Source of the DNA: Escherichia coli
GTDB lineage: Bacteria; Pseudomonadota; Gammaproteobacteria; Enterobacterales; Enterobacteriaceae
NCBI RefSeq assembly: GCF_024223415.1
Contig: NZ_CP100500.1
Reading direction: 5' to 3' (one strand)
DNA length: 64,000 bases
Made by a program: the position numbers and the translations under genes. The notes below the pieces were generated by a model that was not told the DNA's origin, searched no databases, and saw only the letters and a list, made by a program, of their open reading frames with translations. Positions 31,258-42,496 of this stretch are shown here, piece after piece; the first letter of the stretch is position 1; each line of letters starts with the position of its first letter.

Positions 31258-31278
31258 CGTATAACCAAACGTATAACT
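31258..31278 (+). repeat. Two direct CGTATAAC(C/T) motifs, candidate integrase arm-type sites at the distal end
   Basis: CGTATAACC at 31258 and CGTATAACT at 31270. The same 9-mer occurs four times next to int at 42236-42285. Confidence 0.55.
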
Positions 31279-31447
31279 AAAATCATTTGCTGAAAAAGTG
31301 TACAATTTAAAGGCGAGTTTTCCCAGAGGTTTATTAAACTACGAAAATTTCGTAGTTTGTGAATATATTCCGGCCTGCTGGTTAACAGTCCTCAGATGTG
31401 AGGGATGTAGCCAGCGCAATTTTGCGCTTTGCTTTAATCTCAGTCAG

Positions 31448-31729
31448 TTATCGCCGTAACCGCTCCGGCTTCTTCCAGTGGTACGTAATTTTTTCTTTCT
31501 CCCGATACAGTTCAACGCGGCGATTGTAGGCCAGCATTTCCAGAACGCGGATCCGTATGTCGCGCATATCCACGCCGTTAAGCTCAATACCGTCACGGCG
31601 CATCACCTCAGCAACCACACGCGCATAATTTTCGGCGGTCACGCTGTCCGGCTGCGTGGCCTGTTCGTCAGCCTGCTGGCTGATTCCGGCAACGCGACGG
31701 ATTAATCGCAGTAGTTCGGCTTCTGTCAT
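31448..31729 (-). CDS. Hypothetical 93-aa protein flanking cos-1
   Basis: The ORF has a plausible composition, is the last gene before the island end, and abuts the cosQ side of cos-1. I do not recognise the family. Confidence 0.55.
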   Translation of the reverse strand: MTEAELLRLIRRVAGISQQADEQATQPDSVTAENYARVVAEVMRRDGIELNGVDMRDIRIRVLEMLAYNRRVELYREKEKITYHWKKPERLRR

Positions 31730-31763
31730 TGTGCCCCCATCGTTCTGATAGTCTGGTGTCGTC

Positions 31764-31989
31764 GGGTCCTTCCTGGAATTATGGCCCGTTACGGGGCGTC
31801 GACCTCGCGGTTTTTCGCTATTTATGAGATTTTTTGAGGGGGTGGTTGTTGTTTAATTGTTTGGTATATCTAATTGATAAGTAAGGTAAAAATAAAATAA
31901 ATACAACAACCTTACGGTGTATTTTGATGTCATTAATGTGAAAAAATTCAATGATATCAAATGGTTTTGTAAAAACATATGGTTGTTGT
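31764..31989 (+). other. cos-1: lambda-type cohesive-end site (cosQ GGGTCCT, cosN, cosB with GGTTGTTGT repeats), reading rightward
   Basis: gggtccttcctggaattatggcccgttacg|GGGCGTCGACCT|cgcggtttttcgctatttatgag aligns with the lambda junction GGGTCCTTTCCGGTGATCCGACAGGTTACG|GGGCGGCGACCT|CGCGGGTTTTCGCTATTTATGAA. The 12-nt end equivalent is at 31794-31805. Confidence 0.8.
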
Positions 31990-32163
31990 ATCGCGTATTT
32001 GATGGCGTAACAGAAAGTGATTTTTAACTTTACCGCTCTGTAACTACGGATTATTCCATGCTGGCACGGAGAACGGCTACGGCATGACGCCACCCAGCCT
32101 ATACAGAACAGTAAAGCCGATAAATTGTTAATCACGCGCAGCAATGCGTGTGATTTTTGCACA

Positions 32164-32359
32164 CTTCCGGTTAACGGGTACGATGTCCGGTTTGTTTGTA
32201 CATTTTTTGCACATGTCCGGTTCGCAGAAAGCATGTTTTTATATTTTTCATATAGTTAACTTGCAGAGAAACCGGACATGGATCCCGAAAAATTTTCATA
32301 AATAGTGAAAACGCGCGAGGTCGACGCCCCGTAACGGGTCCACATGCCGGAAAGGACCC
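32164..32359 (-). other. cos-2: second lambda-type cos site in inverted orientation (cosB with ATGTCCGGTT repeats), reading leftward
   Basis: The minus strand reads gggtcctttccggcatgtggacccgttacg|GGGCGTCGACCT|cgcgcgttttcactatttatgaaaattttc. The 12-nt end equivalent is at 32329-32318. Confidence 0.8.
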
Positions 32360-32361
32360 GC

Positions 32362-32384
32362 AAAAAAAGCCGGATTTCTCCGGC
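32362..32384 (-). terminator. Rho-independent terminator ending the capsid operon
   Basis: The minus strand reads GCCGGA-gaaa-TCCGGC followed by TTTTTTT, 7 nt after the stop of the 137-aa gene. Confidence 0.8.
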
Positions 32385-32390
32385 CTTGTC

Positions 32391-32804
32391 TCAGATGGTT
32401 TTCAGTATGCGATCGATGTTGCCGTCATCGACCGGGTTTCTGCCATCGTATGCCATGCCAGCTGATACGGCTTTCGGGCTGTGCATGTCCATAAAGTTTT
32501 CAAAGGCTGAAGTAAGCTGTGGTGCAACCTTCGGGCGTTCCTGCTCTATGGTCATGCTAAGGATGCTTTTAGCCGTACCAACATCGATACAAGGCACGTT
32601 AGCCATTGCACGTAACAGCGGCTGGTAGTCGTCAGATTCATGAAGCGCCATAATCGCATCAGCGCGCTGCTTGTCCTGTTCTTCCAGTTTGTTTAGTCGG
32701 TGTATGGCCTCGTAGGTTGATAAACCTCTGTCAGCCATTGCCCGCGCTTCGGCTTTAAATTTACTCGCCAGCGGTAGCGTCATGATACTTTCATTCGTTG
32801 CCAT
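32391..32804 (-). CDS. Hypothetical 137-aa protein, last gene of the capsid operon (possible scaffold or size-determination factor)
   Basis: The ORF is tightly spaced after the decoration gene and has an acidic, helical-looking sequence. I do not recognise the family. Confidence 0.6.
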   Translation of the reverse strand: MATNESIMTLPLASKFKAEARAMADRGLSTYEAIHRLNKLEEQDKQRADAIMALHESDDYQPLLRAMANVPCIDVGTAKSILSMTIEQERPKVAPQLTSAFENFMDMHSPKAVSAGMAYDGRNPVDDGNIDRILKTI

Positions 32805-32816
32805 CGTTCCCCCTGC

Positions 32817-33152
32817 TTATCGGGCCAGCGGCTGAACGGATACGCCGGAACCCGCAAAGGCGGCGCATTTTTTCGCATCGGTGTCGACGCTGTCAGGCCA
32901 GTTAACGGCGGCAATATTGAATATCCCCGTTTTGTAACACTGTGCTGATTTCTGCTTTGACGTGTCCACGGGGTGCGAAGTCAGATAAACAGCTTTGCCA
33001 GATTCCTGACCATCCCACGCCTTAAACTCGCCATTGTCTGCCAGCATCAGCGGGGTAAATTCCTGAATAACGCCAGCATCAGCGGCAAAATGTACCAGCG
33101 TCGTGGATACCTGCTGGCTGCCTGCAAATAACTCAATATATGGAGCGTCCAT
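32817..33152 (-). CDS. Head decoration protein, lambda gpD family
   Basis: TPLMLADNGEFKAWDG and YKTGIFNIAAVNWP...KKCAAFAGSGVSV align with lambda gpD TPLMLDTSSRKLVAWDG and YKSGTFRYEDVLWP...KKRTAFAGTAISI. Confidence 0.85.
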   Translation of the reverse strand: MDAPYIELFAGSQQVSTTLVHFAADAGVIQEFTPLMLADNGEFKAWDGQESGKAVYLTSHPVDTSKQKSAQCYKTGIFNIAAVNWPDSVDTDAKKCAAFAGSGVSVQPLAR

Positions 33153-33163
33153 AGAATCCCCCG

Positions 33164-34219
33164 TTAAGCAATTTTGACGGTAACAAATTTGCGAATATCT
33201 GCCGGTACCGGCTGCGGTGCGCTGTGCGTCTGCACGTACTCAATCGCCGGATCGCCGTCCTCAATCCAGTTTTTCGGGTAGTACATGTTTTGCGTTGCGC
33301 CCGTTCTTACCGCTTCCTGATCCATAATCGCACCATATGCCACAAGCCCTTTATTGTTGGTGTTACCCAGGACAAGCAAATCAGGCTCAAGGAAATATTT
33401 TTCGGTGCCGTCGCTGTCAGTGTATTTGCCGGAATAGACGATAAGGGCCAGATCACCAAGATAGCCTTTAAAGCTCACCACTTCGCCCAGGTTTTTACAG
33501 GCCAGCTCGGCGGCGGATTCTGAGCCACGGTAAAGATCGTACAGTTCACGGAATTTTTTAAAGCTGCGTAATGTGCGCCATGCCTCACCGCCCATAATCA
33601 TGACGTTGGCGGGGCAACCTGCCTGATCAGCATAAAGCTCGATGTCATAGATTGGGTCGTGCATGTCTTTATCCTGCTGGGACCATTTTTTACCACTGGC
33701 CTGCTGTATGATGCAGTTTTCCGGTATTTTCCAGTCGATTTCATAGCGTTCTATGCCTTCGCCCTCAATGATGTTTTTTCCGGTCGTTACCGCATTCACC
33801 GCCAGCCATTCCACGCGCGCCTTAATGGCGTTTATCTGGCGGCGCATGTTGCCAGTAATCAGGCGCATACGGCGGTAAGTTGGATCGTTAAGCTGTGCCG
33901 GATCTTCTCCAGCCATGCGCATGATGGTCTTTGTTGGATCGATTTCGTGCTTTGGCTTCATGTAGCCTGGTTTAATCGTGCTGGTTTCGTACCCTTTATC
34001 GCGCTGGACCTGACTACCCACCATAGGAGAACAGAACGCTGACATCGTAACCTCTTCAATGTCCAGGGTGTCCAGCATGATGTTTTGGGTGTTGAAGGTC
34101 GCCACGTTCGGGAAAAACAGCGTGGTAAACAGCGGACTAAATTTAAATTCCGAAATATCCCCGCGATTCAGGTACGCGAAAAGCTGGTTAGTTGTAAGTG
34201 CCGTTGCTTTGCCTGTCAT
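33164..34219 (-). CDS. Major capsid protein, lambda gpE family
   Basis: FKFSPLFTTLFF, PGYMKPKHEIDP, DPTYRRMRLI, IVYSGKY and YPKNWIEDGDPAIEY align with lambda gpE FKFDPLFLRLFF, PGYVKPKHEVNP, DPAYRRRRII, VVYSGQY and YPKNWVTTGDPAREF. Confidence 0.9.
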   Translation of the reverse strand: MTGKATALTTNQLFAYLNRGDISEFKFSPLFTTLFFPNVATFNTQNIMLDTLDIEEVTMSAFCSPMVGSQVQRDKGYETSTIKPGYMKPKHEIDPTKTIMRMAGEDPAQLNDPTYRRMRLITGNMRRQINAIKARVEWLAVNAVTTGKNIIEGEGIERYEIDWKIPENCIIQQASGKKWSQQDKDMHDPIYDIELYADQAGCPANVMIMGGEAWRTLRSFKKFRELYDLYRGSESAAELACKNLGEVVSFKGYLGDLALIVYSGKYTDSDGTEKYFLEPDLLVLGNTNNKGLVAYGAIMDQEAVRTGATQNMYYPKNWIEDGDPAIEYVQTHSAPQPVPADIRKFVTVKIA

Positions 34220-34425
34220 TATTCACCTCCGTGAACCTGATTGATACCCAGCGCCGCACGTAAATAGGTACGCACCTGCCAGCCTGTTGACGGCTCAACC
34301 ATCGCCAGCGGATCAAGTCCTGCCGCAATGCCTGCTTTTACATTCTGCTGGTGGCGTTCCTTGAGCGCCTCCACGATGTCGGGGCTTATGTAGACCGTCA
34401 CCCCGCCTTTTTTCTCTTCTGCCAT
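34219..34425 (-). CDS. Hypothetical 68-aa protein, first gene of the capsid operon
   Basis: The RBS AGAGGAA precedes the ATG, and the stop overlaps the capsid gene start (ATGA coupling). Confidence 0.6.
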   Translation of the reverse strand: MAEEKKGGVTVYISPDIVEALKERHQQNVKAGIAAGLDPLAMVEPSTGWQVRTYLRAALGINQVHGGE

Positions 34426-34459
34426 AGTCAGAAATTCCTCTTTGACTTAAAAAATCATA

Positions 34460-34509
34460 ACTGGATGTTCATCCAGTCCTGATTATAATCATGATTGCAT
34501 TTTGCGCAA
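34460..34509 (-). promoter_or_regulatory. Candidate sigma70 promoter of the capsid operon with an overlapping palindromic operator
   Basis: The minus strand reads TTGCGC (34509-34504), a 16-nt spacer, then TATAAT (34487-34482). The inverted repeat ACTGGATG-aa-CATCCAGT (34477-34460) follows at about +1. Confidence 0.5.
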
Positions 34510-34592
34510 CAATATTGAGTTACGTTGCAAATTATGAAATGATTATCCCGATCATGTGTGCCAGTGCACCATAAAAAACCTCGTATACAAAA

Positions 34593-34630
34593 GCCCGATA
34601 AGCCCCCTGTGACCTTATCGGGCTTTTTTT
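34593..34630. terminator. Hairpin terminator upstream of the capsid promoter
   Basis: GCCCGATAAG-11 nt-CTTATCGGGC hairpin followed by TTTTTTT on the plus strand and by TTTTG on the minus strand. Confidence 0.6.
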
Positions 34631-34636
34631 AGGCGT

Positions 34637-34658
34637 AAAAAAGCCGGATTGCTCCGGC
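34637..34658 (-). terminator. Rho-independent terminator after the ProQ/FinO-like gene
   Basis: The minus strand reads GCCGGA-gcaa-TCCGGC followed by TTTTTT, 26 nt after the stop at 34684. Confidence 0.75.
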
Positions 34659-34683
34659 TTCGTCTCTTCATGTGGTCAGGGTT

Positions 34684-35278
34684 TTATGCTTTCCGTACGC
34701 CCGAGGAACTGGCATTTTTCAGAATAATATTATGCCCTGCTGGTGGCTTACCGTTATGCTTATTTTCTGCCTTCATGTTTCTGCGCTCCTGCTGTTTTTT
34801 CTTCATCTCATCCAGTCGCTTCCCCGCGTTCAACTGGTGCTCCTGTGTCACCTCCCCGCACGGATGGCCTTTCAGGTCGTAACGCACGCCACCAGCCATC
34901 AGGGAACGGTAATATCGCACTGAACTGACATAATACGCCAGCGTTGCGCGAAGCGCTCCCTGACCTAATGAAATACCTCTCGCAGTAATATCCTCCATCA
35001 GGTCATCAAATATGCCAACCTTAAGCGGTCTGGGCGATTCCTGGCTGAAAAGTTCAGGCCAGAGCGCGGCAAGGCGTTCAACGCGTCTGATATTTTTTTT
35101 CCGGCTCTTTTCTGATTTGCGTTTTGCTGCCGTCTTCTGTTGTGTTTTCTGCTCGCGGCTCTGCTTTTGCGCTGGTGTGGTTTTATCCGGCTGTTCAGCC
35201 TCCTGCGTCTTTTTCTGCGGTGTGCCGTATATGCCTTTTGGTTTTCGGTTAATGGTCAGCTTTGTCATGTTCTCCCCC
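34684..35278 (-). CDS. ProQ/FinO-domain RNA-binding protein with a lysine-rich N-terminal tail
   Basis: PRPLKVGIFDDL...LRATLAYYVSSVRYYRSL..GGVRYDLKGHPCGEVTQEH aligns with E. coli ProQ ARPLKIGIFQDL...LRSALRLYTSSWRYLYGV..GATRVDLDGNPCGELDEQH. The preferred start is MTKLTINRK at 35278, behind the RBS AGGGGGAG. The track ORF extends to 35364. Confidence 0.8.
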
Positions 35279-35347
35279 TTTGTGCTGTTCCACCAGCGGC
35301 ATCTGCTACCCCGTGTCGCTCCCGCTGGTGTCGTGTTTCCCCGCCTG

Positions 35348-35668
35348 TTAATAACCGTCATCATTTACGTTATCAGGGTAATCACGCCATATTTCATCAG
35401 TAAGCGACGGTAGCCCCATCTGTTGTATTGTCCTGTCTGCGGCCCTTCTGACTGCGTGAACATCATAACGGTTTTCAGGTATCGGGCGCTTTGCCTTCCT
35501 GATACATTCCCTTGCTCTCATTGCCGCAAGTTCTCTGTGCCTGTCTTCCTGAAGAGTAATCATCACATCCTGCCACCTTCTGGCAGCCCGTCGCCACAGT
35601 CCCCTGCTCTCGAGTTCTTCTGCTGTCGCGTCGCTTATTGTCCGGTTCTTCGGTGTGCTGTTGTTCAT
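35348..35668 (-). CDS. PerC-family (PerC/Pch-like) transcriptional regulator
   Basis: This is a 106-aa ORF. The N-terminal AEELESRGLWRRAARRW motif resembles the PerC signature. The call is made from memory of the family only. Confidence 0.55.
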   Translation of the reverse strand: MNNSTPKNRTISDATAEELESRGLWRRAARRWQDVMITLQEDRHRELAAMRARECIRKAKRPIPENRYDVHAVRRAADRTIQQMGLPSLTDEIWRDYPDNVNDDGY

Positions 35669-35685
35669 GTTGCTCCCCGCCTGAT

Positions 35686-36096
35686 TCAGAAGGGTATATC
35701 ATCTCCGTAGGGGTCATCGCCTCCCGCTGGTGGCTCATTCCCCTGTGTGCCTGTGGTTTTGCGTCTGTTCCCGCCATGACGTGCCGCACGCGCACTGATT
35801 ACGCTGTCTGCGATAACCTGCCAGCCCTGCCGCGTTTCCCCGTTCTGTCCGGTCCACTGGCTCACCTGCATGTTACCCGCCACGCTCAGGAGTTCACCTT
35901 TGCGGTGCTTTGCCAGTGCTTCGGCCTGTCTGCCAAACGCCAGCACAGATAACCACATCGTCGCCGTTCCGTCATCTGCCTGGCTGCACGGAAGGGGGAC
36001 CGCCATACTCGCCATCGCCATTTGTGTCCCCTTGCTGGTGGTCTTTAACTGCGGGTCAGCCACCAGCCGCCCGTAAGCCGCTATCTGTGCTGTCAT
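35686..36096 (-). CDS. ssb: Single-stranded DNA-binding protein
   Basis: It has an OB-fold N-terminus (GRLVADPQLKTTSKG...WLSVLAFGRQAE), a Gly/Pro-rich linker and the canonical acidic tip DDIPF. Confidence 0.85.
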   Translation of the reverse strand: MTAQIAAYGRLVADPQLKTTSKGTQMAMASMAVPLPCSQADDGTATMWLSVLAFGRQAEALAKHRKGELLSVAGNMQVSQWTGQNGETRQGWQVIADSVISARAARHGGNRRKTTGTQGNEPPAGGDDPYGDDIPF

Positions 36097-36344
36097 GCTG
36101 TATGCTCTCCGGTTTTAACGTTGATGGTTGTCACCTGTTCCGCTCCGGCAATCTCCCGTTCTGTCAGCGTGGCAAAATTTGCCGCTACCGTTGTCATGAA
36201 TGCGCTTATCAGTTCGGGATGTGCTTTCGCGTATCCTTCTCCCGCGTGGCGGTCTATCGTTCTGATTGCCACCTTTAAGGCGTGCTCTGTCATGTCTAAC
36301 GCTTTATATTTTGGCGCTGTCTTATCTCTGGTTTTTCTGTTCAT
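36093..36344 (-). CDS. Hypothetical protein (83 aa from MNRKTRDK)
   Basis: The track ORF is 36093..36374. Its first 10 codons are translated iteron repeats, so the start at 36344 is preferred. It overlaps the ssb start. Confidence 0.55.
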   Translation of the reverse strand: MNRKTRDKTAPKYKALDMTEHALKVAIRTIDRHAGEGYAKAHPELISAFMTTVAANFATLTEREIAGAEQVTTINVKTGEHTA

Positions 36345-36555
36345 TCCCCACCACTCCCCACTTTTGCTCCCCACTTTTTAAATTCCCCACTTGCTCCCCA
36401 CCTCGTTTTTTGAGTGAATCTAATGCTTTGTTTTTCATTGCGTTTTTTACTCCCCACTTTTTTGGATGTATACAGGTGGGAAAGTGGGGAATTATGTTTC
36501 AATTTTGTTAAATTCCCCACTCTCCCCACTTTTACTACCCACTTTTTACAGTGGG
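36345..36555. repeat. Iteron-type replication origin: about 13 copies of YCCCCAC(T) flanking an AT-rich spacer
   Basis: Direct copies are tccccac, ctccccact (x4), ttccccac (x2), tctccccact and tacccact. Inverted copies are gtggga, gtgggga and gtgggta. The AT-rich core is at 36411-36448. The region lies immediately 3' of the helicase gene. Confidence 0.7.
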
Positions 36556-37961
36556 TAAACATCATCCCCATCGACACAAATCACGCCGTCTTTTTCCAGC
36601 TTGGACAGCCAGCGCCGGAAGTGCTTCATCTCATACCCCAGCTTTTTCATATCGTCGCGGAGAAGGGCGATAGTGCATGGCTCTTTGTGTGCCGTCCGCG
36701 TTCTGATGCACTGCCATAGCGCGGTATGGTTTTCCGTCTTGTTGCCTGCCTCCTCGATGCGCTCCAGTTCAACGGGAGAGCGCGGCTTATCAACCACCAC
36801 CAGCGACGTGATTAACTCCCCGTCAGCGTCGGTAAAAAGCTCCACCACGCGTAAATCGTAGGCGGCCTCTTTCAGTTCCTCCGCGTCCTTCATTTTGGTG
36901 CAGGATATAACCAGGGCTTTACTGTCTGCACCTTCTCGGCGAATACGGTATTCAGCGTCCAGAGATGCACGAAATGCACTGGAACCACGCGCCCCCTTTG
37001 TTTCATCCTTGCCGGAATGGTGGACCACCAGCACCGTGGCCCCTGTGCGTCGTTTCAGGTCGTCACATCCACGGATAAACGCCCCCATATCCCGCGCGTC
37101 ATTTTCATCATTACCGCCAAAGCAACGCGCCAGCGTATCCAGAATAATCATGCGTACCGGTTTACCCGTTTCCCGTTCAACCTGGCGGGAAGCGATAACC
37201 ATTTCATCAACATCAAGCGGGGCTGCCGGAAAAATCGGGCGGTTTACCAGGTACAGATTTTTCACCCGTTCATCATTAACGATTTCCCATGCCTTGATAC
37301 GACGGGGGACACCAATGCCACCTTCACCGACAACATACATCACCGAACCATGCGCCACCCTGCGGCCTCCCCAGTGGCGCCCCGTGGCAACATGACACGC
37401 CCAGGAACACGCAAGGAATGATTTATAGGAACCGCTCGCACCGTATGTGCTGCACAATGAATTAGCCGGAATCACGCCCTTAACGACATAATCAAGCTGT
37501 GTGTCGTATCCTGCAGATCCAATGCTCATGGGTAGCGTGGTTTTTCGCTGGCTGTATTGCTCATCAGTAAGTATTTCCCCGCGCTCTGCCTGTTCGCGGA
37601 TCCGTTGCAGGTAGTCGCGCCATTCCTCCCGCTTCTGGCTGTGCATTCCCTCGGGGTAATAACTCGCATCCCGTATACCTGCCGCCGCCAGTTTTTGCCC
37701 GATGGCATTAATATTTGATGGCTTGATGTGGCCTGCCTTGTACAGCCGGACACAATAGCGACCATCGTCGATAATTTTCAGGTCTGCCAGTTCGTCAAGC
37801 TGACTGTCTCCCAGCCATACTGGCGGGACGTTATCGCCAGCAAGTCGCCCGTCCTGTTCCTGCCATTGTTTTGCGTGCGCCCAGGCATCACTACCTGCAA
37901 AAATAATGACTTCGGTCATTTTGTTGTGTGGCTGTTTTTTTAAGTTCGGTGCCAGTTTCAT
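36546..37961 (-). CDS. Replication initiator helicase (RecA-fold, RepA/DnaB-like AAA_25 type) with a C-terminal winged-helix domain
   Basis: This is a 471-aa ORF with a Walker A-like GASGSYKS, Walker B MIILDTLARCFGG and the motif VLVVHHSGKD. The start is coupled to the upstream gene (ATGA). Confidence 0.8.
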   Translation of the reverse strand: MKLAPNLKKQPHNKMTEVIIFAGSDAWAHAKQWQEQDGRLAGDNVPPVWLGDSQLDELADLKIIDDGRYCVRLYKAGHIKPSNINAIGQKLAAAGIRDASYYPEGMHSQKREEWRDYLQRIREQAERGEILTDEQYSQRKTTLPMSIGSAGYDTQLDYVVKGVIPANSLCSTYGASGSYKSFLACSWACHVATGRHWGGRRVAHGSVMYVVGEGGIGVPRRIKAWEIVNDERVKNLYLVNRPIFPAAPLDVDEMVIASRQVERETGKPVRMIILDTLARCFGGNDENDARDMGAFIRGCDDLKRRTGATVLVVHHSGKDETKGARGSSAFRASLDAEYRIRREGADSKALVISCTKMKDAEELKEAAYDLRVVELFTDADGELITSLVVVDKPRSPVELERIEEAGNKTENHTALWQCIRTRTAHKEPCTIALLRDDMKKLGYEMKHFRRWLSKLEKDGVICVDGDDVYPL

Positions 37962-38257
37962 TTTTTATCCCTGAATCCGTTAATCATGGTTTTCATCTTC
38001 TGAATATTGGCGCGTGCTTTCTCCCTGCTGGTTGGTTTACTGCGGGGCGCTGCCTGTACCAGAGAAAAATCACGCCGGAACTGATAAACAGGCATCACGC
38101 AGTCATATTCGTAGCCATCACGGCGGTAAGTGATGCGCCGTTCTGCCACGCCTTTAATCGTTACCGTACCGCCGTAGTTATCACGGAAAATATCGCCGGG
38201 ACGGATTTCAGGCCGAGCGGGGCCGCTGGCAGTAAAGCCAGAATTTTTCTTTTTCAT
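37958..38257 (-). CDS. Hypothetical 99-aa protein (possibly DUF4222-like)
   Basis: The ORF is coupled to the helicase gene, and small proteins of this type commonly precede satellite primase/helicase genes. The family assignment is only a recollection. Confidence 0.55.
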   Translation of the reverse strand: MKKKNSGFTASGPARPEIRPGDIFRDNYGGTVTIKGVAERRITYRRDGYEYDCVMPVYQFRRDFSLVQAAPRSKPTSREKARANIQKMKTMINGFRDKK

Positions 38258-38261
38258 GGTT

Positions 38262-38462
38262 TTATTTTCCTGTCAGTGATTCCGGCTTTATTCCGGCGCG
38301 AATACAGGCTTCAGAAAAAAAAGCCAGAGAACCAATAACCTCATTATTTCTAAGGCGGCATTGCGATTTCACTTTCCCTTTATCCAGGAATATCAAAACG
38401 CGCCCCGTATAATCAGATGGCACATTAAGCACTACAGGTAAGTGCGCTTCATGATTATTCAT
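38262..38462 (-). CDS. Hypothetical 66-aa protein
   Basis: The start MNNHEAHLPV at 38462 lies behind the RBS CAGGAGGTGG and overlaps the upstream stop (ATGAATAA). The track ORF extends to 38531. Confidence 0.6.
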   Translation of the reverse strand: MNNHEAHLPVVLNVPSDYTGRVLIFLDKGKVKSQCRLRNNEVIGSLAFFSEACIRAGIKPESLTGK

Positions 38463-38898
38463 GGCTAACCACCTCCTGGAATTTTCTTCTGTAACGCGCC
38501 TCTGCCACATATTCAGCATAGTCCGACGCAATATTGAGAATATCGCTACCCGTTCCTGAATGTTCGGCGGTTTCCAGTAAAAAACATGCAGCTTTTACCA
38601 TGTCAGCAACACATAACAGCGCAATATCTGTATCTTCCGGTGTGCCATCAAATTCCTGTTTCAGGGCATTAAAACGATCATCACGCATAACCCCATATTC
38701 ACAATCAGCAATCAGGATGGCTTTGGCCTCATTCAGTGCCATATCAGCGGTAAGCTGTGCGTAGGCCAGCAAATGCGGGATTATTGCCCCTGTATATTCC
38801 GGCTCTCTGATAATGTGGTCGGATGTGTTGATTAAATAGTTTGTGCGAAAAATGCACCTGTAACCATCAGTTAACAACGGATATACAGGGGGGACCAT
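38455..38898 (-). CDS. Hypothetical protein (about 147 aa if started at MVPPVY; the true start is uncertain)
   Basis: The C-terminal ~130 aa have protein-like composition (..ALNEAKAILIADCEYGVMRDDRFNALKQEFDGTPEDTDIALLCVADMVKAACFLLETAEH..) and the stop is coupled to the next gene. No strong RBS precedes 38898. Confidence 0.5.
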   Translation of the reverse strand: MVPPVYPLLTDGYRCIFRTNYLINTSDHIIREPEYTGAIIPHLLAYAQLTADMALNEAKAILIADCEYGVMRDDRFNALKQEFDGTPEDTDIALLCVADMVKAACFLLETAEHSGTGSDILNIASDYAEYVAEARYRRKFQEVVSHE

Positions 38899-39681
38899 GA
38901 ATGATAAGGGGGTGCCGTTTGATGTGCTCCTGCAAAAGCTGAATGCTGCACGCGCCGCAAGGGAACGTGAGCGCATGAGTAATAACCCTGTCCCTCCTGA
39001 ATTACCTCGCCCTGAACATTTTCCGCTTGAGGATTTCATCAGGGGACGAATCCGAACAAAACGATAACCGCCGCCGTGATATGAGGCATCACGACGCAAT
39101 GCATTACAGGTGAGCACCATGAACAAATCCATATTATCCCCCACAGTTCTGGACGTAAACACAAAGCAGCGACAGATATTATTACGCGCCGTCATTAAAG
39201 CCAGACACGAGAAATTAAACCAAATCTTAAAATAAGATACGCCGCTACCGCTGTAAGTCTTCATCAGAAACAGAAAACGCCAGAGCAGATGAGCACGGAG
39301 GTAACTCTTTATGAAAATAAACGAATCAGGGGAAATTACCGAAGCCAGCGTGGTACGCCAGCGGAGGCGGGAACGACGGGTACGGCCCCCCGCGCCATCC
39401 GATAATTTCCCGCTTGAGCGCTTCATCAGTGAACGGCCCCGCATACGCTGGAACGGCACAACCCCATACCCCGAGGAGAGACAGACAAAAAACAAACAGC
39501 GATGATGAAATCTGGAGGCCAATACCATCACGCAGCCATCAGGAGATTGCTGACGCGCTTCCTGTTCGCTGGTGGCCTCGATGGTAATCACGCGCGGTTG
39601 TGCAGTGCTCAGGGCGATAAAACGCCACACAAAGGCCGTTTGTGTGTGCGCAAGGCGTGGGGTATGCTGTGTTCCAGCCAT
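38455..39681 (-). CDS. Icd-like (host cell-division inhibitor-like) N-terminus continuing without a stop into the downstream gene. This may not be a single real protein.
   Basis: A strong RBS AGGAG lies 7 nt before the ATG at 39681. The sequence MAGTQHTPRLAHTQTAFVWRFIALSTAQPRVITIEATSEQEARQQ resembles Icd-like proteins of P4-type elements. The following ~260 codons are R/S/C-rich and junk-like, yet stop-free. Confidence 0.35.
   Translation of the reverse strand: MAGTQHTPRLAHTQTAFVWRFIALSTAQPRVITIEATSEQEARQQSPDGCVMVLASRFHHRCLFFVCLSSGYGVVPFQRMRGRSLMKRSSGKLSDGAGGRTRRSRLRWRTTLASVISPDSFIFIKSYLRAHLLWRFLFLMKTYSGSGVSYFKIWFNFSCLALMTARNNICRCFVFTSRTVGDNMDLFMVLTCNALRRDASYHGGGYRFVRIRPLMKSSSGKCSGRGNSGGTGLLLMRSRSLAARAAFSFCRSTSNGTPLSFMVPPVYPLLTDGYRCIFRTNYLINTSDHIIREPEYTGAIIPHLLAYAQLTADMALNEAKAILIADCEYGVMRDDRFNALKQEFDGTPEDTDIALLCVADMVKAACFLLETAEHSGTGSDILNIASDYAEYVAEARYRRKFQEVVSHE
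38897..39067 (+). CDS. Candidate small ORF (56 aa), paralogous to 39311..39505
   Basis: A G-rich RBS (GGGGGG) precedes the ATG. It shares ..FPLE.FI..R.RIR with the second ORF. It is antisense to the long minus-strand frame. Confidence 0.3.
   Translation: MNDKGVPFDVLLQKLNAARAARERERMSNNPVPPELPRPEHFPLEDFIRGRIRTKR
39311..39505 (+). CDS. Candidate small ORF (64 aa), paralogous to 38897..39067
   Basis: The RBS GGAGG lies 8 nt before the ATG. It shares the NFPLERFISERPRIR block with the other ORF. Confidence 0.3.
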   Translation: MKINESGEITEASVVRQRRRERRVRPPAPSDNFPLERFISERPRIRWNGTTPYPEERQTKNKQR

Positions 39682-39808
39682 AATCGTTACTCCTGTTAAC
39701 GGTTTGGTTAGACGCCCTGCATGTGTGCCACCACTGCGGGGCGTTGTTTTTGTGGTGTCATTGGTATACATTGTCACCTTAATGGCATTATCACTACAGA
39801 GGTTTATC

Positions 39809-39985
39809 ATGTCAACCAATGACAACAAAAAAGAAAGATTTTCCGTACAACTACGCCTAGACGCAGATTTGTTCGAGCGTTTAAGTATTGCCATGAAAGA
39901 AGATGGCGACGATAACCGATCTGGATGGATCAAAAGGCTTTTACGACGCGAATTAGATAAACGCGGCATTGAGTCAAAAAGCTGA
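39809..39985 (+). CDS. Ribbon-helix-helix (Arc/MetJ/CopG-like) DNA-binding protein and candidate island repressor. It is the only convincing plus-strand gene in the island.
   Basis: MSTNDNKKERFSVQLRLDADLFERLSIAMKEDGDDNRSGWIKRLLRRELDKRG has the beta-strand/helix/helix pattern typical of RHH proteins. An AGAGG RBS precedes it, and a terminator follows at 40079-40107. Confidence 0.6.
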   Translation: MSTNDNKKERFSVQLRLDADLFERLSIAMKEDGDDNRSGWIKRLLRRELDKRGIESKS

Positions 39986-40078
39986 CAGCCAACCAGCAAG
40001 CCAGCACACTGATCACATTGCCCACCAGCCGCAAATGTGGCATTGTTGGTGATGCTTTTGTTTTCCCTTGTTCCCACT

Positions 40079-40107
40079 GGCGACCCTTTTGCGGTCGCCT
40101 TTGTTTT
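40079..40107 (+). terminator. Plus-strand rho-independent terminator downstream of the RHH gene
   Basis: GGCGACC-cttttgc-GGTCGCC hairpin followed by TTTGTTTT. Confidence 0.65.
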
Positions 40108-40203
40108 GCCTGTTATCCGGCAATTGTGGCGCTTCGCCACACGGTTTATATAACCCCACTGCTCAGATTCATTTTTTGCGCAGTAGGTTAATTGTTCGCA
40201 AGG

Positions 40204-40230
40204 GCGGCTCCTTATCGGGGCCGCTTTTTT
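40204..40230 (+). terminator. Second plus-strand terminator, possibly the 3' end of a small antisense RNA
   Basis: GCGGCTCC-ttatc-GGGGCCGC hairpin followed by TTTTTT. It is not functional in the minus orientation, where no U-run follows. Confidence 0.55.
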
Positions 40231-40256
40231 CGTGTTTGTCATATCTGTGATACCCG

Positions 40257-40463
40257 TTAAGCAGCCGTTCCGCGTGCTTCCTGTTCGCGTTCTTTCTGCC
40301 AGGCCAACACATCATCCTCATACCATCCGCGACGGCGTAAACCAACGCGAAAACCCTGCGGAAATTCTCCGGCGTTGATCATGCTTTGCAGCGTGCTGTC
40401 TGCCTTGATGTGGATAATTTTTTTTACTTCCTGGCGAAAGATAATTTTTCTGATTGCTTCCAT
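40257..40463 (-). CDS. alpA: AlpA-family regulator/excisionase (MerR-type wHTH)
   Basis: This is a 68-aa ORF. The sequence ...STLQSMINAGEFPQGFRVGLRRRGWYEDDVLAWQ is typical of the AlpA/prophage CP4-57 regulatory family. Confidence 0.8.
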   Translation of the reverse strand: MEAIRKIIFRQEVKKIIHIKADSTLQSMINAGEFPQGFRVGLRRRGWYEDDVLAWQKEREQEARGTAA

Positions 40464-40481
40464 CGTGATTTACCTTGTGAA

Positions 40482-40498
40482 TCCGGTGTATTCCGGTG
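40482..40498. repeat. Two TCCGGTG motifs 10 bp apart just upstream of alpA
   Basis: The sequence is aTCCGGTGtatTCCGGTGac. The same heptamer is phased at 10 bp three times at 42386-42412, next to the att core. Confidence 0.6.
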
Positions 40499-40596
40499 AC
40501 AAATACGGTAAATCATCGGATATGGGTAAAAACAGTTCCCACCGTTTTTAAACGGTATACACCGTTTTTTATATTGATGATTTGAAATGGAATTAT

Positions 40597-40619
40597 AAAA
40601 AAAGCGGCATTTCTGCCGC
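40597..40619 (-). terminator. Rho-independent terminator after the int-orf83 unit
   Basis: The minus strand reads GCGGCA-gaaa-TGCCGC followed by TTTTTTT. Confidence 0.75.
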
Positions 40620-40630
40620 TTCCAGGATTG

Positions 40631-40882
40631 TTACCGCCATTTTTTGGGCCTGCCTCCGATCTTCATAGATGCCGGACGTACGACCTTATCAATACTTACC
40701 GCCAGATTTCTGGAAGCGCCACGGGATACCAGAAAATCTACTACCTGTTTTTTTGATGGGGCCGTCGTCCTGTCCTCCGGATCGTAGGTTGACCAAAATT
40801 CATGCTGAACCATCAGGGCCAGTTGCAGCCCGTCGCAATTGCATCTGATATTTTTTTGCATCTTAACGGTTTCATGTTTCAC
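40631..40882 (-). CDS. Hypothetical 83-aa protein downstream of int
   Basis: The ORF ends in a basic C-terminus (GGRPKKWR). I do not recognise the family. Confidence 0.5.
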   Translation of the reverse strand: MKHETVKMQKNIRCNCDGLQLALMVQHEFWSTYDPEDRTTAPSKKQVVDFLVSRGASRNLAVSIDKVVRPASMKIGGRPKKWR

Positions 40883-40959
40883 GGCCTTGTCGTTAAATTT
40901 GATGCAATTATACGACGGTTTTACATGGTTTTCGTAGTTTTTACTGGTTTTCTGTACAG

Positions 40960-42219
40960 CTACACGGCTCGGATACCCCTTTTACCACTGGCGAGGGTTA
41001 CGCCCGTCGCCGCAGCCTCGACAAATTCGCCCCACCAGCGCATCAGCACGATGCGTTTTTCTATGTAGTTGCTCCGGTTGTATGCCCGTCTAACTTCGTT
41101 GGTGTCGACGTGGGCAAGTGCCGCCTCTATTACGTCCGGCTCGAATCCTTCCTCGTTCGCTGCTGTGCTGAATATGGCGCGTAATCCATGAGACACCAGC
41201 ACGCCAGCGAATCCCATACGCCGCAATGCTGCGTTAGCTGTCTGGCTGTTCATCGGCTGCTGTGGGTCTTTCAGACTTGGGAAAACGTAATTGCGGTGGT
41301 GGCTGATTGGTTTCATGGCCTCCAGCACCGCCATAGCCTGACCGGAAAGCGGGATAACGTGATCCCTGCGCATCTTCATGCGTCCGGCAGGTATCGTCCA
41401 TTGCTTCGCGTCCAGGTTGATTTCATCCCACCGCGTTGATGACGCTTCGGCGGGACGGGTTACGGTCAGTAACTGCCATTCAATCAGTAATCTGGTCTGC
41501 CGTTCTGTTGCCGATACTGATAAAGCCTGCATAAGCTCGGGCAGCTGTTCGGGGCGGATTGTTGGCATATGTTTTTTTACAGGTGAGGGAAACGCCTTAC
41601 GCACATTCATAGCCGGATTGGCATCAATCAGCCCACTGTTGGCGGCGTAATCCATTACCTCATTAACGCGCTGTAAAACCCGCTTGAGTGTTTCCAGGTT
41701 GCCGCGCTCCTTGATGGGGGTAAGCACTTCAACGAACCTTCGGGCGGTGAGGGTATCTATTGGCGTGTTGCCGATGAACGGGAATACATATTTATCCAGC
41801 GAACGCCAGATGTCTTTAATCGTGTTGGGGGCCAGATTCTGGCTGATTTTCACCTGGTACCATGCCGCCGCCACATTTTCGAACGTGTTCCCTTGTCTTC
41901 GGGCCTCTGTCTCTCTTTTTTGCCTCTCGTGGTCCTGCGGGTCAGTTCCGGCACTGATTAACGTCCTGTACTCGCTACGGCGTTTTCTGGCATCAGCCAG
42001 GGAAACATCTTCAAGCGATCCAAAACTCAGCAATATTCTTTTTTTGTCCGATGGTCGGTAGTAGGAAAATCTCCAGAGTTTTGATCCAGACGGTTTGACC
42101 AGGAGAAAAAGCCCTCCGCCGTCCTGCAGGGTGTACTCCTTTTGCGCTGGTCTGGCTGCTTTGATCTGCACTGTGGTTAATGGGTGTGTTTTTCTCGCCA
42201 TATGTCTATGATTCCACAC
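40960..42219 (-). CDS. int: Tyrosine integrase, P4/CP4-57 (DUF4102 N-terminal arm-binding) type
   Basis: The N-terminus reads LTTVQIKAARPAQKEYTLQDGGGLFLLVKPSGSKLWRFSY. The catalytic region contains HGLRAIFST..ALAHV and RAYNRSNY. An alternative start MARKTHP lies at 42201. The gene is adjacent to the tRNA. Confidence 0.9.
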   Translation of the reverse strand: MWNHRHMARKTHPLTTVQIKAARPAQKEYTLQDGGGLFLLVKPSGSKLWRFSYYRPSDKKRILLSFGSLEDVSLADARKRRSEYRTLISAGTDPQDHERQKRETEARRQGNTFENVAAAWYQVKISQNLAPNTIKDIWRSLDKYVFPFIGNTPIDTLTARRFVEVLTPIKERGNLETLKRVLQRVNEVMDYAANSGLIDANPAMNVRKAFPSPVKKHMPTIRPEQLPELMQALSVSATERQTRLLIEWQLLTVTRPAEASSTRWDEINLDAKQWTIPAGRMKMRRDHVIPLSGQAMAVLEAMKPISHHRNYVFPSLKDPQQPMNSQTANAALRRMGFAGVLVSHGLRAIFSTAANEEGFEPDVIEAALAHVDTNEVRRAYNRSNYIEKRIVLMRWWGEFVEAAATGVTLASGKRGIRAV

Positions 42220-42235
42220 GAAAAAACAGGGTTTT

Positions 42236-42285
42236 AGTTATACGGCTTTAGTTATACGTCAGCCCGTATAACTAAACGTATAACT
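42236..42285. repeat. Four CGTATAACT motifs (two inverted, two direct), candidate integrase arm-type sites
   Basis: AGTTATACG at 42236 and 42250; CGTATAACT at 42265 and 42277. They lie directly upstream of int. Confidence 0.6.
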
Positions 42286-42385
42286 AAAAAATCCGGCTGA
42301 TAGCTTATAAATCCGGTGATGTTCGGTGACTAAAAAACATAAAAAAACCCGCCAATCAAGTGATTAGCGGGTTATCCCTGTCTTA

Positions 42386-42419: not shown

Positions 42420-42496
42420 TGGTCGGCACGAGAGGATTTGAACCTCCGACCCCCGACACCCCATGACGGTGCGCTACCAGGCTGCGCTACGTGCCG
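42420..42496 (-). tRNA. proL: tRNA-Pro (anticodon GGG)
   Basis: The minus strand reads CGGCACGTAGCGCAGCCTGGTAGCGCACCGTCATGGGGTGTCGGGGGTCGGAGGTTCAAATCCTCTCGTGCCGACCA. It is 77 nt with cloverleaf-compatible arms and an encoded CCA. Confidence 0.92.

Follow-up and report, generated by a model that had tools for sequence, protein, structure and literature searches.

A repeat triad of N15/Monarch packaging type beside one of the two cos sites of an EcCICFT073-type phage-inducible chromosomal island

Introduction

Which phage terminase could read a cohesive-end (cos) site on an island where no gene for a small terminase subunit (TerS) follows it? The question is raised by a phage-inducible chromosomal island (PICI) of the EcCICFT073 type in Escherichia coli, located in a stretch of 64,000 nt of contig NZ_CP100500.1 (the window, whose numbering is used throughout). 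The island has two inverted cos sites, and the first of them, cos-1, is followed by three copies of the nine-base repeat GGTTGTTGT. We consider it very likely that this triad is a complete tripartite cosB of N15/Monarch specificity (R3, a site for integration host factor (IHF), an inverted R2, and R1) attached to intact cosQ and cosN elements, as judged from its arrangement and from its counterparts upstream of a phage terS gene.

EcCICFT073 is the prototype Gram-negative cos PICI, with capsid and decoration genes (c1499, c1500) and two functional cos sites (PMC6092414), and it encodes RppA (c1503; PMC6739421). Rpp redirects the helper TerS; it has a Nu1-like winged-helix domain, and an Rpp-TerS heterodimer was shown at the cosB of EcCICFT073 cos1 (PMC6739421). 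According to the papers of 2018 and 2019, no phage cosB was identifiable in EcCICFT073 and the cosBs of PICIs were completely divergent from those of phages, and the reason for having two cos sites was left open (PMC6092414, PMC6739421). The 2022 review by Murialdo and Feiss deals with the Rpp-side cos only and does not mention the second one. A literature search of limited coverage turned up no report of phage-type cosB modules at the cos sites of PICIs.

Results

The repeat triad and its geometry

The elements of cos-1 are listed below, with box offsets counted from the nick and 31794 taken as +1.

31764-31773, plus strand: cosQ-like element of cos-1, GGGTCCTTCC; aligns with the prophage cosQ; begins 30 nt ahead of the nick, like lambda cosQ
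31794-31805, plus strand: cosN-1, the 12-nt cohesive-end sequence GGGCGTCGACCT; lambda GGGCGGCGACCT with G6 changed to T
31836-32009, plus strand: cosB module, homologous to the prophage cos-to-terS intergenic region at 90-98% identity; stops where terS would begin
31844-31852, plus strand: R3 box GGTTGTTGT, +51 to +59 from cosN-1; exact motif match
31867-31879, minus strand: I1-like IHF-consensus match TATCAATTAGATA between R3 and R2; one mismatch to WATCAANNNNTTR
31903-31911, minus strand: R2 box, inverted relative to R3 (ACAACAACC on the plus strand), starting at +110; exact motif match
31955-31967, plus strand: second IHF-consensus match TATCAAATGGTTT, differing at one base from the consensus, within the long spacer from R2 to R1; conservation among phages partial
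31981-31989, plus strand: R1 box GGTTGTTGT in the orientation of R3, starting at +188; exact motif match

Five exact copies of GGTTGTTGT occur in the whole 64-kb window. The repeats are longer than 9 nt: the conserved R3 block runs to 31863 as the 20-nt sequence GGTTGTTGTTTAATTGTTTG, which is invariant in a five-sequence alignment, and R2 and R1 have the extended match TA.GGTTGTTGTAT in common. When the whole window was shuffled 100 times, only 4 of the shuffles contained any 9-mer with three exact copies, in either orientation, inside 150 bp. Unshuffled, the window has six sites of this kind, among them the GGTTGTTGT triad, the second cosB and the iterons of the island.

In the lambda sequence itself, the R elements are located at about +53 (R3), +108 (R2, inverted) and +153 (R1); in phage 21 they begin at +50, +107 and +150, based on the annotation of M81255 with base 167 as +1. 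R3 and R2 of the window agree with both phages in position and orientation. R1 has the same orientation as in lambda and phage 21 but lies about 35 bp farther from cosN. R3 is thus found about 50 bp from a lambda-type cosN nick, and the three boxes run in the order plus, minus, plus, which is the arrangement of a tripartite cosB. The R3-R2 spacer is AT-rich and contains the I1-like match, with an A/T tract (31880-31901) on the 5' side of that match on the minus strand. The second IHF-consensus match, at 31955-31967, might explain the extra distance of about 35 bp relative to lambda. Beyond geometry, the likeness to lambda and phage 21 extends to nearly identical cosQ and cosN elements and to a predicted reader of the Nu1 family, whereas the R sequences are unrelated (CGTTTCC.TTCT in lambda, CATGTCGG in phage 21).

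A preliminary description of this DNA had noted the three repeats, with the coordinates and strands confirmed above; its offsets of +50, +109 and +187 denote the same sites with the nick counted as 0. It had also likened their geometry to lambda R3, R2 and R1, which is correct for R3 and R2 in full and for the orientation of R1, but not for the position of R1. Of the lambda positions that it gave, those of R3 (+53) and R2 (+108) were accurate and that of R1 (+151) differed slightly from the value found here, and the AT-rich interval that it pointed out between R3 and R2 is indeed AT-rich.

Phage counterparts and the cognate TerS

A 215-bp query taken rightwards from cosN-1 gave matches in 298 E. 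coli genomes, most of which, in a spread sample, end at query position 159 or 174. Two of the matches that were inspected lie in lambdoid prophages. In both, the homologous region has the lysis genes on one side and, on the other, a 168-aa "terminase small subunit" gene, with which a lambda-like head module begins; the genes that follow are those for TerL (the large terminase subunit), head-tail joining, portal, S49 peptidase, decoration and capsid proteins. cosQ, cosN and all three boxes are conserved in the alignment, with 90-98% identity to the window from cosN to R1. The prophage terS starts at +229, and R1 ends 32 bp before its start codon. The encoded protein matches the Pfam family Phage_Nu1 (PF07471) with 76 bits against a cut-off of 30.

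A scan of IMG/VR identified 431 contigs that encode relatives of this TerS. The triad is present in all of the 80 that were retrieved (72-100% TerS identity), at fixed offsets from the terS start: cosN at -228, R3 at -178, R2 at -119 and R1 at -41. In a subgroup with 72-73% TerS identity, cosN, R3 and R2 are each 11 bp nearer to terS, with R1 about 12 bp closer to R2. The G6-to-T variant of cosN also occurs in phage contigs (L024 and L026). A blastn search of INPHARED with the cosB of cos-1 (cosB-1) returned no match beyond cosQ-cosN; its counterparts were found only in E. coli prophages and IMG/VR contigs.

We aligned 53 unique sequences derived from 81 phage loci and 22 island loci. Invariant columns make up 7/9 of the R3 box, 9/9 of R2 and 8/9 of R1, compared with 26/55 in the R3-R2 spacer and 15/69 in the R2-R1 spacer. 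The R2 box is unchanged in every one of the 53 sequences, R1 reads GGTTGTTGT in 52, and the IHF core TTGATAAGTAA is invariant or nearly so. Since the variants AGTTGTTGT and GGGTGTTGT occur, the core of the box can be narrowed to TGTTGT.

The specificity of this cosB type has a precedent. N15 R3, defined by block mutations, is GAGGTTGTTGTT at bp 48-59, consisting of GAGGTT (bp 48-53) and GTTGTT (bp 54-59), and scrambling the GTTGTT block reduced the yield about 100-fold (PMC4669245). The left end of N15 reads GAGGTTGTTGTTTAAT at +48 (...GAGGTTGTTGTTTAATC... from +48), and the window has GTGGTTGTTGTT at +49 to +60 where N15 has its R3 at +48 to +59. Fourteen consecutive bases, GGTTGTTGTTTAAT, are common to the window R3 block and to N15 R3 with its flank, where they start at +50. 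The proteins agree as well: the prophage TerS is 49% identical to N15 TerS, with an identical predicted recognition-helix segment, SVQAFDKWGV (within MAFLLNKSDMASSIGISVQAFDKWGV in the prophage protein and MAVLLNKSDMASSLGISVQAFDKWGV in N15 TerS), and their N-termini (MA.LLNKSDMASS.GISVQAFDKWGV) differ at 2 of 26 positions. A group of prophages named "Monarch" has a tripartite R3-I1-R2-R1 cosB with the N15 R sequence and recognition helix (PMC4669245).

Because N15 R3 matches and the Monarch group has both the same helix and a tripartite cosB, the triad is best assigned to the known N15/Monarch packaging specificity, with the Monarch identity taken from the published description (PMC4669245) and the comparison with N15. 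The likeness lies in the R sequence, the predicted TerS recognition helix and, for Monarch, the R3-I1-R2-R1 layout; the difference is that the window site belongs to a satellite island with no terS behind it, and that N15 itself has R3 only. The terminases of lambda and phage 21 package N15-specific DNA more than 1000-fold less well (Table 6 of PMC4669245), and with helpers of lambda or 21 specificity the level is about 10^-4 of that with self DNA, so a site of the cos-1 type should serve N15/Monarch-type helpers only.

The preliminary description had proposed a cosB with a terminase specificity other than that of lambda, and this is supported by the same triad upstream of a Nu1-family terS in lambdoid prophages. 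The search of such prophages that it suggested led to these 90-98% identical regions and to the 168-aa Phage_Nu1 protein as the cognate TerS, and the conservation among islands on which it made its reading depend was also observed (the boxes are invariant while the spacers drift to 77-82%). The specificity itself, however, is not new, being that of N15/Monarch.

The host island and its second cos site

The element that carries cos-1, and the trace of rpp found in it, are as follows.

31267-42289, minus strand: host element, an EcCICFT073-type PICI of about 11 kb beside tRNA-Pro; boundaries approximate; 99.8% identical to an annotated locus
32033-32098, minus strand: 3' remnant of rpp, 22 codons, 82% identical to RppA residues 123-144 (tblastn)
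32162-32280, minus strand: cosB of cos-2, with (C)ATGTCCGGTT boxes
32318-32329, minus strand: cosN-2, GGGCGTCGACCT, with cosQ at 32349-32359

The 99.8% identical locus comes from E. coli strain 135, where it is flanked by yejO and tRNA-Pro. Its RefSeq annotation gives an integrase, a small helix-turn-helix regulator, an Icd-like/primase protein, a DUF4222 protein, a RepA-family helicase and a single-stranded DNA-binding protein, then PerC, ProQ/FinO, major capsid and head decoration proteins, a 137-aa open reading frame (ORF) that some genomes list as a head-tail connector, the cos region and a 93-aa ORF. In the window, tRNA-Pro is at 42420-42496. A 16-bp direct repeat, AAACGTATAACTAAAA, is present at both ends of the island (31267-31282 and 42274-42289), with three copies of TATAACTAA beside the integrase end (42233-42268). 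Both kinds of repeat are probably elements of the attachment site, of core or arm type, and give the island a length of about 11 kb. An iteron-like cluster of AAAGTGGGGA(A) repeats at 36343-36513, beside the RepA-family helicase gene (36546-37961, minus strand), is probably the replication origin of the island.

The 93-aa ORF (31448-31729, minus strand) belongs to phrog_1561, to which no function is assigned there, and accompanies the cos on the cos-1 side in almost every related island whose sequence extends that far (about 60 of 80). It was considered as Rpp or a TerS-like factor and rejected as Rpp, as it has no RppC match in the PDB and no Pfam family. A 138-aa ORF that overlaps the triad (31818-32234, minus strand) likewise has no PDB or RppC match and is unannotated in the 99.8% identical RefSeq locus; we treat it as spurious because it spans phage-derived non-coding cosB DNA. 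Far from the island, at 666-783, the window contains a tight cluster of the 12-mer GCCAGATAAGAC, with three copies in mixed orientation.

cos-1 and cos-2 share a 73-nt inverted repeat (31763-31835 and 32288-32360), which includes the cosQ-like element, and their cosB regions are of different types. In the minus-strand sense, the cos-2 boxes lie at 32270-32280 (forward, +50 from the cos-2 nick), 32212-32222 (+110) and 32182-32192 (+140), the latter two both inverted, with a degenerate copy at 32162-32172. This cosB is nearly identical to the cos-to-Nu1 region of PhiR12_1 and to the published EcCICFT073 cos2 sequence. Phage 21 was rejected as its cognate: the resemblance is loose, and the near-identity is to PhiR12_1. 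The PhiR12_1 TerS (locus L169) has a C-terminal part of about 105 residues that equals the Monarch-type TerS almost exactly, and a different N-terminal DNA-binding domain. Since the two proteins differ N-terminally only, the two cosBs of the island fit two DNA-binding-domain variants of one terminase module; the two helper TerS would have one TerL-binding C-terminal half in common and differ only in the DNA-binding domain.

The window island has the layout of EcCICFT073: an integrase and a replication module, genes for capsid and decoration proteins, and a pair of lambda-type cos sites in inverted orientation. In its cosQ flank, cos-1 equals EcCICFT073 cos2, and cos-2 corresponds in flank and position to EcCICFT073 cos1. 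The contents of the two positions differ. The cos-2 position, beside the 137-aa ORF, is occupied in EcCICFT073 by rppA and an Rpp-type cosB, and the cos-1 position by a ATGTCCGGTT-type cosB, whereas the window has the ATGTCCGGTT type at the cos-2 position, the Monarch type at the cos-1 position and no rpp. A tblastn search across the window with RppA revealed no intact rpp, only the 22-codon remnant, and no TerS homologue was found in the 64-kb window. Judging from its sequence, the island is a descendant of an Rpp-bearing form in which the 5' part of rpp and its cosB were replaced by the PhiR12_1-type cosB.

Exchange and inversion of cosB cassettes

Eighty islands from IMG/VR that carry the 137-aa ORF were surveyed, and they fall into the classes below, for which the counts are approximate.

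About 10: rpp with a Monarch-type cosB
About 11: rpp with a ATGTCCGGTT-type cosB (the CFT073 arrangement)
About 7-8: both phage-type cosBs, no rpp, window orientation
About 4: both phage-type cosBs, no rpp, cos-cos segment inverted
About 25 (sequence read in L094 only): island-encoded 180-aa Nu1-family terS preceded by GGTGGTGG/GGTTGGTGT boxes; the other cos has a lambda-like triad

The Rpp-bearing islands encode a 146-aa Rpp between the cos sites, with residues 1-50 the same as in published RppA. The gene is intact in L004 and L005, and the L004 protein matches RppC (6hlk) with E = 2e-31. A derivation of Rpp from the Monarch TerS was dropped as a candidate, as alignment places the DNA-binding domain of Rpp closer to lambda Nu1. 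In L094 (2911-3920), the island's own 180-aa Nu1-family TerS, 49% identical to the Monarch-type TerS, lies behind cosN and GGTGGTGGTGGTGG / GGTTGGTGT boxes, and a lambda-like CAGATCC(G/T)TTCT triad is found at the other cos, which is inverted. The approximately 25 islands that have the cos spacing of L094, without the other motifs and rpp, are probably of the same type. In that case, the family would span TerS-encoding, Rpp-encoding and pure-mimicry forms.

The segment between the cos sites also changes orientation. Window positions 31763-32360 are inverted in L146 (95% identity in reverse by blastn, with collinear flanks at about 90%), and the same inversion is present in L154, L159 and L161, with ends that coincide with the 73-nt inverted cosQ-cosN repeats. 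The cos-cos segment therefore looks like an invertible cassette, putatively made by recombination between the two cos sites. The triad is at +51 from an intact cosN at either island cos position, including in the islands with the inverted segment. Some Monarch-type-cosB phages and islands (L005, 6950-6990; L066-L071) have a clearly different cosN region (...CACCGGGGGTCGGTGGACGCGCAAAAACGCGC...). Because the Monarch-type cosB is found beside different cosN sequences, cosB and cosN modules appear to recombine independently.

In islands L004 and L005, cosB-1 has drifted to 77-82% identity, yet the boxes and the IHF core are kept. This retention, the constant +51 spacing and the occurrence at either cos position argue that the cosB-1 module is under selection on islands and is not a relic.

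Discussion

The cos-1 region can be understood as a copy of a phage packaging site that is placed on an island and recognized by a helper in the ordinary way. When a lambdoid helper whose TerS has the N15/Monarch helix (...GISVQAFDKWG...) grows, the island would excise and replicate. The winged-helix domains of a TerS dimer would then bind R3 and R2, spanning a bend made by IHF, with R1 in an accessory role, by homology with lambda. Bound TerS would position the helper TerL to nick cosN-1 (31794-31805), and DNA would be translocated rightwards, in the plus direction, through an island concatemer to the next cos of the same orientation, i.e. the next cos-1. cos-2, with its PhiR12_1-type cosB, would serve a second group of helpers and package in the opposite direction. 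Both the binding of TerS to the island boxes and the use of cos-1 in island packaging are predictions of the comparison with phages. As the island is without Rpp, packaging would rest on plain mimicry of the helper cos and not on redirection of TerS. In SaPIbov5-type satellites, a helper's cos is likewise carried and the unmodified helper terminase packages the satellite (as cited in PMC6092414); these differ in being Gram-positive and dependent on an HNH-dependent cos phage, without a Nu1-type tripartite cosB.

Several observations weigh against this interpretation. The R3 box starts 1 bp farther from the nick than in N15 (+51 vs +50), and the mutational data for N15 cover R3 only, since that phage is without R2 and R1 (PMC4669245). 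The candidate I1 site has a mismatch to the IHF consensus. As R1 lies about 35 bp farther from cosN, the higher-order complex may differ from that of lambda and phage 21. EcCICFT073 cos2, whose position is equivalent to that of cos-1, was dispensable for transfer by lambda and phi80 (PMC6092414); such dispensability is expected if the specificity of that cos differs from that of lambda and phi80, but it lends no positive support to a function at this position. Finally, each of six island-bearing genomes (H51-H56) matches the cosB query only once and shows no evident resident Monarch-type prophage, so the helper would need to arrive by infection.

It is unlikely, in our estimate, that cosB-1 is a passive relic, acquired by recombination with a Monarch-type prophage across cosQ-cosN, on an island that is packaged only from its other cos. 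The window cosB-1 and that of phage contig L024 are nearly identical, a sign of recent exchange. Islands have clearly reshuffled their cosB cassettes, and the dispensability of the equivalent EcCICFT073 site with lambda and phi80 helpers would fit this explanation. However, islands in which the module has diverged to 77-82% still keep the three boxes and the IHF core, which points to selection within islands and not only in phages. The module is also always joined to an intact cosQ-cosN at +51, in both positions and both orientations. In EcCICFT073, deletion of both cos sites abolished transfer, and each cloned cos alone was sufficient for plasmid transfer by lambda and phi80 (PMC6092414).

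We regard it as very improbable that recognition of the boxes depends on an Rpp-TerS heterodimer, as at EcCICFT073 cos1, and not on helper TerS alone. About ten related islands do pair an intact rppA with a Monarch-type cosB, and the Nu1-like domain of Rpp would be suited to such binding. The window island, however, has only the 22-codon remnant of rpp, and in Rpp-bearing islands the gene lies directly behind the other cos, whose cosB differs (GGTGACACCACCACC...). In a published cosB swap, RppA acted only on the cosB next to rpp (PMC6739421). Moreover, the triad stands upstream of terS in phage contigs that need no Rpp, including all 80 retrieved of the 431, and Rpp has a DNA-binding domain that resembles lambda Nu1 more than the Monarch TerS. 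That the repeats are not a packaging signal at all but operators of a regulator, promoter elements or replication iterons is barely credible: direct and inverted short repeats in AT-rich intergenic DNA are also typical of operators and origins, but the boxes are fixed in position to cosN and not to any island gene, the phage region is part of the late operon, with lysis genes on one side and terS on the other, no sigma-70-like promoter was detected in 31400-32450 (2.1 expected from shuffles), and the island iterons are elsewhere, at 36343-36513 by the helicase gene.

With cos-1 read as a Monarch-type packaging site, a wider proposal can be made for the PICI family, towards which we lean somewhat. 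The two cos sites would form an exchangeable, invertible cassette in which each cos has a different recognition module, and the second cos would be a device for helper range. The modules observed at the cos positions are a copy of a helper cosB (of N15/Monarch, PhiR12_1 or lambda-like CAGATCC(G/T)TTCT type), rpp with its own cosB, or a full-length island terS with its own boxes.

In summary, this is not a new kind of system, because the N15/Monarch cosB type of phages, the PICI family and its double cos are already described. What appears modestly new is the Monarch-type cosB on a PICI, the island with dual mimicry and no Rpp, and the exchange and inversion of cosB cassettes across the family. 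The cosB regions of PICIs had been called unrelated to those of phages, and the purpose of the second cos had been left unexplained; here the cos at that position has a straightforward copy of a phage cosB, with different islands copying different specificities and some having dropped Rpp altogether. This gives the island a concrete helper class, lambdoid prophages that encode an N15/Monarch-type TerS and are common in E. coli, O111, O145 and O26 included, and it predicts that the terminases of lambda and phage 21 will not package the island from cos-1. It also suggests a simple hypothesis for the second cos, namely that it widens the range of helpers, and a way in which helper-satellite pairs could be predicted from genome sequences.

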